Virus record (IMG/VR): IMGVR_UViG_3300034062_007329
Location: 14,787 to 78,786 of that record
DNA: 64,000 bases
Direction: 5' to 3' (one strand)
Origin: a virus
Shown here: in pieces, positions 6,868 to 11,661 of the stretch
Layout of the letters: each line of letters starts with the position of its first letter
Position numbering within the stretch: position 1 is the first letter of the stretch
The notes under the pieces: generated by a model
What the model was told of the DNA's origin: nothing
Databases searched by the model: none
What the model saw: the letters and a program-made list of their open reading frames with translations, nothing else
Position numbers and translations under genes: made by a program

Positions 6868-7392
6868 ATGAAAATCACAAAACACACATTAAGACAAATA
6901 ATTAAAGAAGAAATAGAAAAGCTTTTTGAAAACAAAAAAATAAAAACAGAAGATATTGCAGCAGGAATAAAAATTATAAACGAATATATTTTGCTTATAG
7001 ATAAATGCTCTCAATATAAAAAAGATGACTCTTCAAGTCTACAAATCACTATTGATAGCTTTAAAAAAGCATTAGGAAAAGGAAGCGAACTACATAAAGG
7101 TTTATTTCAAGAGAAAGAAATGAAACCAAATAGGATATATTATGTCCCCGCTAATAGCTTTAATCCATATCAAGCAGGCGTCTTCGAAAAACTTTTTGAT
7201 TTAGAAAAATATTGTATAGATTATATAAAAGGCGGTTGGGGTTTTAAGGGGTTTTTTGACTATCACCCTCATCTGTTTAAAGACAAAGGGCTCAGAGATC
7301 AAGAATCTTTTTTGCAAATTTTAAATGAATGTAGGGGCGTTTTAGAAAATTTTGCTGATCAATTTTCAACTGAAATTGATTTAGGAGTATAA
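6868..7392 (+). CDS. Hypothetical protein with MKITK..L..II.EE N-terminal motif
   Basis: N-terminus shared with 7396, 7668 and 29621. Confidence 0.7.
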   Translation: MKITKHTLRQIIKEEIEKLFENKKIKTEDIAAGIKIINEYILLIDKCSQYKKDDSSSLQITIDSFKKALGKGSELHKGLFQEKEMKPNRIYYVPANSFNPYQAGVFEKLFDLEKYCIDYIKGGWGFKGFFDYHPHLFKDKGLRDQESFLQILNECRGVLENFADQFSTEIDLGV

Positions 7393-7395
7393 ATA

Positions 7396-7650
7396 ATGAA
7401 AATCACAAAAAAATTATTAAAAGAAATGATTGAGGCGGAAATAACTAATTTAAAAGAAACTGACGACATGTTCCCAGAAATTAAGTTGGATAAGCAAGGA
7501 CAAAGTCTTCTTAGAGAAGTAGCGAATGCTTTAGGGGATGCAAACTTTTTATTAAATTATGTTAATTTTTCGACAAATGAACAGAAAGAAGCAGTAATCT
7601 ACATTAAAAATGTGCTTGAAAAAGTAAAGAGCCTTTTACAAACAAAATAA
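7396..7650 (+). CDS. Hypothetical protein with MKITK motif
   Basis: MKITKKLLKEMIEAE; AGGAG RBS. Confidence 0.7.
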   Translation: MKITKKLLKEMIEAEITNLKETDDMFPEIKLDKQGQSLLREVANALGDANFLLNYVNFSTNEQKEAVIYIKNVLEKVKSLLQTK

Positions 7651-7667
7651 ACAACAGGGATAAAATA

Positions 7668-8015
7668 ATGAAAATCACAAAACAACTGTTAAGAGAAATG
7701 ATTGAAGAAGAAATGAAAGTTATTCAATTGGGTCTTGGTCAGCCTCTACAAGCTCATGGATATATTGGCGGTGAACAAGGTATGGAAATCCAACCAAGTG
7801 AACCACAAATGGGTTATGAACAAGATCCAGATGGTTACGAAGGAAGTATGGCAAAAAATAACTTGTACAACTTAAAAAGTGATGCTATGATGCTCTGCGA
7901 ACTCATCGCAGAGGACGAGAATTTAGAGCCTTGGGTTGAGGAAAAGATCGCAGTTGCCGCCTCAATGTTAAACTCTGTGGCTCGTCACATGAAGGCAGAA
8001 AAAACAAGGATGTAA
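7668..8015 (+). CDS. Hypothetical protein with MKITK motif and EGSMAK..LEPWVEEKI domain
   Basis: N-terminal motif; C-terminal domain typical of large phage hypothetical proteins. Confidence 0.7.
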   Translation: MKITKQLLREMIEEEMKVIQLGLGQPLQAHGYIGGEQGMEIQPSEPQMGYEQDPDGYEGSMAKNNLYNLKSDAMMLCELIAEDENLEPWVEEKIAVAASMLNSVARHMKAEKTRM

Positions 8016-9249: not shown

Positions 9250-9948
9250 ATGAAAATAATTTATGATCATACGCATGGTTTTGGTAAAATGCGTGATCAA
9301 GCGTATATATACGCCCCAACAGGAGCCTTAGTTGAAGAAAAAGAGCATAAAGAAGCGCTGGAAACTGGTTGGTGTCCTTTATTAAATAATCTCTGGTTTC
9401 AAACAAGATCTACAAGAATAGATATAAAAAAGTATATACCAAATAAAAAGCTTTTAAAAAAAGCAAAACACATAAAACCATTTTATGGTGTATCACTTGA
9501 TAATACAAAGAAAGCAATTTTTTTTGAGATATTCCAAAAATATATTAAATACAAAAAATTTAAAAGTCAAGATTACTCACTCGACGATATAATCAATACA
9601 TCGAATGGCTACGTTTATTATGCATATGCAAATAAAATAATTGGTTTTTGTTTTTTCAAGATCTTAGCAAATAATATGTTTGCGGTTGAATTTGCTTGGG
9701 ATTATGAAGATCCGAAGCTTTCTCTTGGAAAGTTAAACATACATTTTCTTGCTTACTTTGCTAAAATGAAAAAGTATGATTGTGTATACCTTTCTTCGGG
9801 ATATGAAAGCTGCTCTATATACAAATCAGACTATGAAGGTTTCCAGTGGTGGACGGGAATGAAATGGTCAGAAGATGTTGAACACTTCAAGCGCCTGTGT
9901 TATAGTGATGATAAGGTGAAGATAGAGTTTGATTGGGAGAATATATGA
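9250..9948 (+). CDS. Aminoacyl-tRNA-protein transferase-like protein (ATE1/Bpt family)
   Basis: L..GW and RSTR N-terminal motifs; WDYEDPKLSLG, YL..GYE..S.YK..Y.GFQWW resemble the ATE C-terminal domain. Confidence 0.7.
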   Translation: MKIIYDHTHGFGKMRDQAYIYAPTGALVEEKEHKEALETGWCPLLNNLWFQTRSTRIDIKKYIPNKKLLKKAKHIKPFYGVSLDNTKKAIFFEIFQKYIKYKKFKSQDYSLDDIINTSNGYVYYAYANKIIGFCFFKILANNMFAVEFAWDYEDPKLSLGKLNIHFLAYFAKMKKYDCVYLSSGYESCSIYKSDYEGFQWWTGMKWSEDVEHFKRLCYSDDKVKIEFDWENI

Positions 9949-9986
9949 TTGACTATGCAGATGTTGTAGTAGATTTAGCTTGTTAA
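9945..9986 (+). pseudogene. purA: Orphaned 5' fragment of purA (MIDYADVVVDLAC*)
   Basis: Encodes the same 12 N-terminal residues as the intact purA at 10663; overlaps the upstream stop as ATGA. Confidence 0.9.
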
Positions 9987-10041
9987 AATGCTTATAATGG
10001 TCGTATGAACTACTTATTATATATGTCATGGAGGCTTTATA

Positions 10042-10656
10042 ATGAGTACAAAAAAATCTGGAATTTATCGTATTACCAATAAAGTAAATAATAAAATTTA
10101 TATTGGTTCTGCCTACAACTTATCTAATCGATTTTCTACACACAAATATTCTTTAAGAAATAATAAACATAAAAATCCACACCTACAAAGTGCTTGGAAT
10201 TTATATGACGAGAAAGATTTTATATTTGAAATTCTTGAAATCGTAGAAGATAAAACAAAAATTATTGAAAGAGAACAATATTATTTAGATTTATATAACC
10301 CATGCGATAATTCTATAGGCTATAATATTGCTAAAAAAGCTGGTAATACTGCTGGAGTTAAAGTATCTCTTGAAACAAGACAAAAACAAAGCGAATCAGC
10401 AAAAAAAAGACCAAAATATAAATGGACTGAAGAACAGAAACAAAATAGGAAAAAGACCCGCAAAGGTCAAGTAATGCCTTGGGCTAAATTAAACTGGGGG
10501 CTTGTAAACGAGATAAGAAAGTTGTATACTGATGGCGTCTTCCAAAGAGAAATAGCAAAAAAATATAATTTGGCACAAACGACTGTAAGTGAAATTATAA
10601 GAAATGTAATTTGGATCGATGAGTATTATGCCTACGAGCGTAGGAGAAACGGATAA
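10042..10656 (+). mobile_element. Free-standing GIY-YIG homing endonuclease (NUMOD3-like and HTH C-terminus)
   Basis: SGIYRITNKVNNKIYIGSA, R...H, EREQYYLD, GYNI motifs. Confidence 0.93.
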
Positions 10657-10662
10657 ATAATT

Positions 10663-11661
10663 ATGATAGATTATGCTGATGTAGTGGTTGATCTTGCGTA
10701 TGGGGATTCTGGAAAGGGAAAAGTTACACATCATTTAGCTAAAGTTGGGAACTATACTCACGTAATCAGGTTTTCTGGAGGCAATAACGCTGGACACACG
10801 ATTTACCACGAAGGCAAGAAGTTTATCACTCATTCTATTCCTTCTGGTGTATTTTATGGAATTCGAAGCATTATTGGACCTGGATGTGTACTTAATGTAG
10901 AGCATTTCTTTAATGAGATGAAGGAGTTGGAAGATGGTGGTGTCAGGTGTCAGGGCTTGGTATTTATTGCACGAAATGCTCATATCATCACCGATGAACA
11001 CGTTATGGAGGATCGACAAGATAACGTTATCGGGACAACAAAACGCGGCGTCGGTCAAGCCTATCGTGACAAGCACAGCCGCAAGGGCATACGAGCGGAA
11101 CAGGTAGAAAAGTTAAAACCATACCTAATTGATATGTATGAGGAGTTTTATAAACCTAATCAAATTAGTCGTATCCTTTTTGAAGGCGCTCAAGGATTTG
11201 GTCTTGATATCGATTGGGGAGATTACCCTTACGTTACTTCTTCTGGCTGCACTGTTGCTGCTGCAATTGCTAATGGAGTTCCTGCAAAGCGAATTCGCAA
11301 TGTTTGGGGAGTTGCGAAAGCTTATGAAACGTATGTTGGAATGAAGAAATTTGAACCAGATGAACCCGTGTTTAAAACAATGAGAGAAATTGGAAATGAA
11401 TACGGAGCAACAACTGGTCGTCCTCGTCAATGCAATTGGGTCAATGCAAAAAATCTTTTTAAAGCTATCGATCTAAACGGAGCTAACAAGATTGTATTTA
11501 ACAAGGTTGATATCTTGAGAGAGATTGGCTCTTGGAAGATCTATGATGAAGACGACAAACTTGTAGAGTTTAAGAGCGAAGAAGAAATGAAAACTTGGTT
11601 TGCTAATAAGCTCCCAAGATCAACTGAGATCTATTGGTCGGATTCACCGGAAAGACTATAA
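10663..11661 (+). CDS. purA: Adenylosuccinate synthetase (short form)
   Basis: GDSGKGK, GGNNAGHT, IGTTKRGVG, EGAQG..LDIDWGDYPYVTSS, EYGATTGRPR, NKVD. Confidence 0.96.
   Translation: MIDYADVVVDLAYGDSGKGKVTHHLAKVGNYTHVIRFSGGNNAGHTIYHEGKKFITHSIPSGVFYGIRSIIGPGCVLNVEHFFNEMKELEDGGVRCQGLVFIARNAHIITDEHVMEDRQDNVIGTTKRGVGQAYRDKHSRKGIRAEQVEKLKPYLIDMYEEFYKPNQISRILFEGAQGFGLDIDWGDYPYVTSSGCTVAAAIANGVPAKRIRNVWGVAKAYETYVGMKKFEPDEPVFKTMREIGNEYGATTGRPRQCNWVNAKNLFKAIDLNGANKIVFNKVDILREIGSWKIYDEDDKLVEFKSEEEMKTWFANKLPRSTEIYWSDSPERL

Follow-up and report, generated by a model that had tools for sequence, protein, structure and literature searches.

On the usual view, a homing endonuclease persists within a gene only under the shield of an intron or intein, and otherwise lies between genes. 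How, then, can an endonuclease gene stand within the 5' part of a phage coding sequence that has neither, with a complete copy of the gene behind it? The question is raised by the purA locus of a 64,000-nucleotide (nt) stretch of viral DNA (the window), taken from a 78.8-kb virus record in IMG/VR (IMGVR_UViG_3300034062_007329; completeness estimate 35%), in which a short stub repeating the start of purA is followed by a gene for a GIY-YIG endonuclease and then by an intact purA open reading frame (ORF). Our conclusion, which we hold with considerable confidence, is that the locus carries a free-standing GIY-YIG homing cassette within the 5' part of purA, that about 40 to 42 substitute codons carried by the cassette join the resident gene at the boundary N/AGHT (the slash marks the junction), and that the native start has been left behind as a decaying stub. 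Because the substitute 5' end restores a full-length purA downstream of the endonuclease, neither an intron nor an intein is needed. Feature coordinates are collected in Table 1, and the other loci compared are referred to by L numbers.

The 13-codon stub ORF reads MIDYADVVVDLAC before its TAA stop, and the intact purA ORF (10663-11661, 332 amino acids) starts at its own ATG with MIDYADVVVDLAYGDSGKG (in a longer N-terminal read, MIDYADVVVDLAYGDSGKGK). As the original prediction had stated, with a correct list of the codons concerned, the first 12 residues of the two are identical while 8 of the 12 codons differ. At the nucleotide level the new-start bases 10663-10699 duplicate the stub with 28 of 37 bases identical; the 9 changes within the 36 bases of the shared codons are all synonymous (eight third positions and the first base of a Leu codon), and in the alignment the homology of the stub to native purA ends after base 9981 (one base past codon 12), immediately ahead of the P-loop codons. 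Chance cannot explain an identical match of 12 residues. When nine random base changes were simulated, the peptide was kept in 0 of 200,000 trials (24% of single changes are synonymous), and the fact that all differences are synonymous indicates that each copy evolved as a functional gene in a genome of its own and that the two came together recently. The number of differing codons is itself ordinary: independent encoding under this genome's codon usage gives a mean of 6.2 (probability of eight or more, 0.21), so the copies are saturated at synonymous sites and not unusually recoded. With the codon log-likelihood of the new start at the 55th percentile, exceptional recoding of the 12 codons was rejected.

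Comparison with relatives identifies the stub as the native start. Of 37 bases, the stub shares 34, 33, 31, 32 and 30 with five endonuclease-free relatives, against 28, 30, 27, 26 and 27 that the new start shares with the same five; in this gene-end replacement test the remnant is thus nearer the endonuclease-free relatives than the functional copy is for all five, on a window sample of only 37 nt. The closest relative, L002, has a PurA 82% identical to that of the window and the same genes on both sides, with no endonuclease gene between them. There, just as had been predicted for an endonuclease-free relative, the stub codons run directly into the body of purA: the upstream gene overlaps purA by ATGA, and GGGAG is followed by the stub codons and then by TAT GGA GAT (P-loop) without interruption. 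The window keeps this arrangement around its stub, in that the TGA stop of the upstream gene (9946-9948) overlaps the stub ATG at 9945 and the native purA ribosome-binding site GGGAG (9935-9939) lies within the last codons of that gene, 5 nt before the ATG.

The gene between the two starts belongs to a homing endonuclease family. Its 204-residue product matches Pfam PF01541 (GIY-YIG) at 54.5 bits (cutoff 22.6), with a weak C-terminal match to HTH_7; the N-terminal domain aligns to the catalytic domain of I-TevI (1MK0/1LN0, E = 1e-10) and keeps its catalytic Arg, Glu and Asn, and there are matches to PHROG homing endonuclease families as well. Residues invariant in 33 family members (53-100% identity) are G7, I8, Y9, Y20, G22, R30, H34, E78 and N95, which include the conserved Tyr, Tyr, Arg, His, Glu and Asn of the GIY-YIG superfamily. 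About 35 full-length relatives (52-94% identity) are conserved over the whole length, the DNA-binding end included, and the closest of them (P0002-P0011) are 70-94% identical. The gene has its own Shine-Dalgarno sequence (GGAGG, 10030-10034), ATG and stop, and only 55 nt of noncoding DNA before it and 6 nt after it.

DNA context is available for six further family members that are 59-64% identical (L103, L104/L105, L183, L184, L185 and L186). With the window, all seven distinct full-length members that have such context (7/7) lie directly upstream of a purA start, and in all seven the endonuclease gene ends a few bases before that start or overlaps it, with upstream genes that are unrelated among the loci. 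More distant GIY-YIG relatives had no purA homologue within the fetched loci (2.5-3 kb flanks). Of the first 80 purA loci retrieved, 77 had no such endonuclease gene, and it is absent in L282-284 and L298-302 where L104 and L186 have it. No stub was found among the 77 endonuclease-free loci; stubs occur only beside endonuclease genes. This sporadic presence among syntenic genomes, together with the constant linkage to purA, is what characterizes a homing endonuclease. A donor search of a named phage collection returned nothing closer than 41% for PurA and about 50% for the endonuclease, no full-length member of the endonuclease family was found in the genome collection, and the relatives among the matches listed in a metagenome scan were at most 62% identical.

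How much of purA travels with the endonuclease can be read most directly in L104 and L186, for which nearly isogenic endonuclease-free relatives were found by a search with the L104 PurA. A 652-bp insertion distinguishes L104 from L284, and the sequences flanking it are 94-95% identical on either side. Inside purA, the first 120 bases hold 27 differences between L104 and L282-284 and the following 680 or so hold about five at most, the last difference of the tract falling on the third position of the Asn codon in N-A-G-H-T. The tract maps to the same boundary in L186 against L298-302: L186 and L301 are 79% identical over the 126 nt left of this boundary and 95% identical over the 300 nt to its right. 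The endonuclease-free relatives start purA with AAGGAGGAAAC followed by TTG ATT ACC, of which L104 and L186 retain only TTGATTA, then the cassette, and the new copy has a ribosome-binding site and ATG of its own. In these two sister lineages the comparison maps the mobile unit exactly, as leader, endonuclease gene, ribosome-binding site and purA codons 1-40, joined at AAY/GCN (N/AGHT). In a large clade (L282-L330, at about 1490-1510 in each) the native purA start is TTG behind a strong AAGGAGG, and the endonuclease-borne start is ATG.

The stubs themselves are found at very different lengths within the family: 7 nt in L104 and L186, 12 codons in the window and up to 46 codons in L184, where the stub is complete. 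The L185 stub, inside which its contig begins, ends at the same residue as that of L184 and shows amino-acid differences from the new copy; both end exactly after the N42 codon. Since N/AGHT is where the replaced tracts end in L104 and L186 and where the stubs end in L184 and L185, the 12-codon stub of the window is most likely a truncated or eroded remainder. The end of the window stub before the P-loop is thus probably not the insertion target, and the insertion site probably lies about 30 codons past it. In window numbering the N/AGHT boundary is 10788/10789, and by homology we would expect the window's own replaced tract to reach 10788.

Table 1. Features of the purA locus in the window (positions are those of the 64,000-nt stretch)
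Feature	Coordinates	Strand	Basis
Upstream gene, 232 amino acids	9250..9948	+	ORF list; L002 homologue overlaps purA directly
Stub: stranded native purA start, 12 purA codons, Cys and stop	9945..9986	+	Comparison with relatives
Cassette leader	9982..10041	+	Conserved in L103, L104, L186, L183 and L184
Free-standing homing endonuclease gene, 204 amino acids	10042..10656	+	Pfam, PDB and PHROG matches
Replacement 5' purA segment, codons 1-42	10663..10788	+	Extent to 10788 predicted by homology with L104 and L186
Remainder of intact purA	10789..11661	+	Pfam Adenylsucc_synt

Divergence along the window purA was examined against the same relatives. Nucleotide identity to L002 is about 74% throughout, and the synonymous divergence of 0.49 falls within the range of ten flanking genes (0.39-0.52), so that a replacement of the whole gene from a distant donor is not indicated. 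The first 60-90 codons carry more synonymous differences from L002 (64% versus 46%, p = 0.02-0.03), and over its first 270 bases the gene is almost equally close (71-75%) to several clades. Further along, about 145 nt of purA (10934-11077) are about 96% identical to L003 between flanking parts that are 67-83% identical, with a sharp switch at codon 90/91 (17 of 25 synonymous differences in codons 61-90, 0 of 26 in codons 91-120); this stretch is a tract of recent recombination between phage lineages and is distinct from the stub. The synonymous excess at the 5' end, the equidistance and the L003 switch at 10934 would each fit a donor tract over the 5' part of the gene, and none of them fixes its boundary.

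The 332-residue product is, judged from its matches, a short, phage-specific type of adenylosuccinate synthetase. It matches Pfam PF00709 (Adenylsucc_synt) at 5e-82, contains the motifs YGDSGKGK and NNAGHT, and has 358 PurA relatives in viral contigs. Among PDB entries PurA chains are matched at 5e-55 and PurZ at 5e-19 to 7e-15; identity as PurZ, the aminoadenine enzyme, was rejected because the protein is far closer to the PurA chains.

We then compared the purA 5' regions column by column between seven endonuclease-linked and 78 endonuclease-free genes. Residue 38, in the stretch R-[YF]-N-G-G, is Asn in 74 of the 78 endonuclease-free purAs, and is Ser, Gly or Ala in five of the seven linked ones (naive Fisher test, 4e-7): Ser in the window, L183 and L186, Gly in L103 and Ala in L185. 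L184 keeps Asn38 but reads NSGHS, and L104, which also keeps it, has Pro in a second differing column where the codon is usually Cys. Codons 37-38 of the window are TTT TCT (10771-10776), encoding Phe-Ser where relatives have Tyr-Asn, and its sisters L002 and L003 keep Tyr-Asn. The linked purAs are scattered on a quick PurA tree, and the substitutions in codons 37-41 lie within 15 bases of the N/AGHT boundary. These amino-acid changes are better candidates for a source of immunity than the first 12 codons. The endonuclease-free sister of endonuclease-bearing L183 (L034:3464-4489) has the same rare Ser, in R-F-S-G-S-N-N-A-G-H-T, and may represent a resistant empty allele. A CNNNG cleavage motif of the I-TevI kind, looked for by eye at the boundary, was not evident.

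The leader that precedes the endonuclease gene consists of 8 nt of filler, a conserved element (9990-10022; GCTTATAATGGTCGTATGAAC followed by TACTTATTATAT) and then the Shine-Dalgarno sequence, and it is more strongly conserved than the endonuclease coding sequence (23 of 24 bases identical to the L184 leader, versus 68% for the gene). Its first 21 bases (9990-10010) resemble purA codons 36-42: CGTTATAAYGG occurs exactly in three leaders and in native purA codons 36-39, and most of its other occurrences in the roughly 3 Mb searched are that purA site. In a position-weight-matrix test the best match fell in the same register in 5 of 6 leaders tested (per-leader p 0.01-0.09). An operator that resembles the target of the enzyme is known for I-TevI, and the resemblance suggests that the leader may be either a fossil left half-site from an earlier host or a target-mimicking operator. 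The sequence AGATTTA upstream of the leader is common to the window, L103 and L183, with intervening bases that cannot be aligned, which hints at a shared eroded stub; in the window, the stub, the 8 odd bases and the possible fossil of codons 36-42 look like a truncated or eroded 42-codon stub. As an RNA the leader offered just a 6-bp hairpin, with no covariation, and a scan of viral contigs with the leader pattern returned one unrelated chance match (L279).

Endonucleases of another kind have also reached purA. In a second case (L031:3236-5005, also L032), a 56-codon stub is followed by a gene for a 181-residue endonuclease of the EndoVII/HNH type (phrog_1035, 4e-26), unrelated to the GIY-YIG family, and then by a full purA. 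The L031 stub has 96% amino-acid identity to its sister L030, and the two L031 copies have 70% to each other; identity to L030 is about 68% all along the new purA, as against 78% in the stub and 77% in the downstream flank, so that L031 looks like a replacement of the whole gene. At two loci that have no endonuclease gene (L308:1445-1510 and L310), the 55 nt that separate purA from a ClpP-like gene are similar to the final codons of the GIY-YIG gene (IW.DE.Y.Y.KKK) and are followed by an ATG start and a 'GGP' allele otherwise seen in endonuclease-linked L104; this stretch is probably a scar from loss of the endonuclease gene.

Several other explanations of the window locus were weighed against the cassette joined at N/AGHT. 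The original prediction placed the insertion at codon 12/13, immediately before the P-loop, with only 12 codons substituted and resistance conferred by their synonymous recoding. The point at which stub homology to native purA stops (9981) speaks for this version, as does the new start's greater difference from the five relatives, but we judge it unlikely, given that the tract of L104 and L186 runs for 40 codons to N/AGHT, where the long stubs of L184 and L185 end too, that stub lengths ranging from 7 nt to 46 codons within one family make the stub end no marker of the site, and that eight differing codons in 12 is the random expectation. What survives of that prediction is that the nuclease inserts at the 5' end of purA, brings its own start and strands the old one; the position immediately before the P-loop is not supported, nor is synonymous recoding as the source of immunity, the divergence being ordinary for a donor about 20-25% different and the endonuclease-associated changes being amino-acid substitutions in codons 37-41. 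The pattern seen in L031 shows what it would look like had the endonuclease come with a complete foreign purA and left only the first 12 codons of the resident. For the window such a replacement seems quite improbable: the synonymous divergence of its purA from L002 is that of the flanking genes, PurA is closest to L002 or L003 in all five segments tested, and the members with close comparators show just the 40-codon tract.

A group I intron, or some other splicing or bypass element, could in principle join about 9981 to about 10700 with the stub as exon 1, and it is true that the catalytic domain finds its closest solved relative in I-TevI, an enzyme encoded in an intron, and that source annotations call family members 'group I intron endonuclease'. 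We nonetheless give this reading almost no credence. Rfam returned no group I intron match at E <= 10 in 9600-11100, there are just the 55 nt and 6 nt of noncoding DNA to house such an element, and the leader has no supported RNA structure; moreover the stub ends in a stop, and nothing would be gained by splicing, because the downstream purA starts at an ATG of its own with its N-terminus complete. An intein is likewise contradicted by the stub's TAA and by the endonuclease's own Shine-Dalgarno sequence, ATG and stop. The Rfam null and the separate ORF flanked by stops agree with the predicted absence of intron and intein, and group I intron, intein and bypass were all rejected. As for a local tandem duplication unrelated to the endonuclease and followed by drift, the direct repeat is there and nothing further speaks for it; with all 9 differences synonymous, with 0 of 200,000 drift simulations keeping the peptide and with stubs only beside endonuclease genes, in-situ duplication with drift was rejected as scarcely credible, being refuted as far as sequence can tell.

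The cassette reading has points to answer of its own. The window has no close endonuclease-free relative (the best, L002, is at 74% nucleotide identity), so that the extent of its tract comes by homology, backed within the window just by the modest synonymous excess in codons 1-90; at the protein level, the first 60 residues of its PurA are closest to L002 and L003; and its stub ends at codon 12 and not 42, which calls for a truncated join or a later deletion. On the side of immunity, the Asn38 association makes no correction for phylogeny, Asn38 is retained in two linked alleles (L104 and L184), and the endonuclease-free L034 has Ser. The similarity between the leader and purA codons 36-42 reaches only moderate significance.

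Homing is double-strand-break repair from an endonuclease-bearing donor during co-infection, and for the purA cassette we envisage it as follows. The enzyme would cut an endonuclease-free purA in or near the stretch encoding R-[YF]-N-G-G-x-N-A-G-H-T (about codons 36-46), and repair would copy the donor cassette; purA sequence on the 3' side of the cut would serve as the right arm, and the left arm would be provided by the upstream gene, by the donor's stub or by microhomology. The right end would invade the donor purA just past the cut, which would account for the near-zero co-conversion on that side. Two kinds of left junction may be distinguished. In the L104/L186 type, resection of the left end would have to go beyond the resident 5' codons before homology was met in the upstream gene, and the stub would be inherited with the cassette; in the type represented by the window, L184 and L185 the left end would join through short homology, and the stub that remains would be the resident's. 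The travelling copy would resist cutting by virtue of differences next to the junction, in codons 37-41 (here Tyr37Phe and Asn38Ser). More speculatively, the 20-25% divergence of the substitute segment may disfavour repair that skips the endonuclease gene.

It is possible, although we are doubtful, that the substitute segment and the stub are adaptive for the element, with codons 37-41 giving immunity, the 20-25% divergence suppressing endonuclease-free repair and deletion between the direct repeats, and the stub serving as a portable left homology arm. If so, the cassette could jump into any purA whatever the upstream gene, a self-contained, splicing-free means of colonizing phage coding genes.

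All genes in the region are oriented on the + strand. The 232-residue upstream gene scores 22.3 bits, below the cutoff of 25, against Pfam ATE_C (arginyl-tRNA-protein transferase C-terminal domain) and matched no PHROG family; its homologue adjoins purA in L002, L004, L005 and L008, and in L007 it is found on the downstream side of purA. A scan for promoters and terminators gave signal no higher than the shuffled expectation. Elsewhere in the window, three consecutive small genes (6868-8015) begin MKITK.LL(R/K).(I/M)I(K/E)EE and look like a local paralogue family.

If the cassette reading is right, the window and its relatives represent a third route by which homing endonucleases persist in phages, one in which the element carries a substitute gene start. 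The loci then form a nearly complete natural history, from intact empty sites through fresh insertions with full stubs and eroded stubs to a probable loss scar, with an exact tract boundary that falls at a catalytic-motif codon, and they name a small enzyme together with a candidate target of about 30 bp. Such a cassette would explain local mosaicism in a widespread phage auxiliary metabolic gene. There is also a warning for annotation: where a short ORF ahead of an endonuclease gene repeats the beginning of another gene, it is a scar and should not be annotated as a gene. Our limited full-text literature search found no published case of a phage gene start replaced by an endonuclease cassette, and the nearest known systems each share a part of the arrangement.

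Seg enzymes are thought to cut a conserved gene next to their own position and to spread with co-conversion of the flanks. Like them, the purA endonuclease is a free-standing GIY-YIG enzyme with a C-terminal DNA-binding domain and is sporadic among syntenic phages; unlike the seg genes, which lie between genes, the purA element lies within the coding sequence of its target, whose first 40 codons it duplicates and replaces. Intronless homing by the free-standing GIY-YIG (Seg) endonucleases SegF and SegG of T4-like phages is attributed to Belle et al. 2002, as cited in PMC12724721. With I-TevI of the T4 td intron, the purA endonuclease shares the alignment of the catalytic domain and the layout of catalytic domain, linker and helix-turn-helix, and it differs in having no intron, in its length (204 versus 245 amino acids) and in its DNA-binding domain and target. 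The MobA/gene 60 cassette of T4-like phages, in the account given by a preprint that cites Bonocora et al. 2011 (bioRxiv 10.1101/2022.08.31.505936), splits a topoisomerase gene into two polypeptides and involves ribosomal bypassing. According to that account it too is a phage homing endonuclease within a gene, which moves with accessory sequence that keeps the gene functional and protects it against re-cutting; purA, in contrast, is neither split nor bypassed, and a duplicate start restores one intact polypeptide.

The closest parallel is found in fungal mitochondria, where mobile ORFs (mORFs) make gene hybrids in atp6 of Allomyces macrogynus and in atp6, atp9, cox2 and nad3 of Glomus sp., carrying a foreign C-terminus and stranding the native one, with mostly synonymous differences between the copies and a remnant nearest to endonuclease-free relatives (PMC3630166); in Endoconidiophora, C-terminal duplications of atp6 and cob lie beside GIY-YIG/LAGLIDADG ORFs (PMC6279837). 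In both the fungal mORFs and the purA cassette the endonuclease travels with a foreign end of the target gene, which becomes functional, the native end is left as a remnant nearer the endonuclease-free relatives, the differences are largely synonymous, and there is no intron or intein. The purA cassette differs in that it resides in a phage genome, that its endonuclease is a separate ORF and never an in-frame fusion, that its stubs are found at several stages of decay, and that it replaces the 5' end of the gene instead of the 3' end, and so must bring a ribosome-binding site and a start codon with it.

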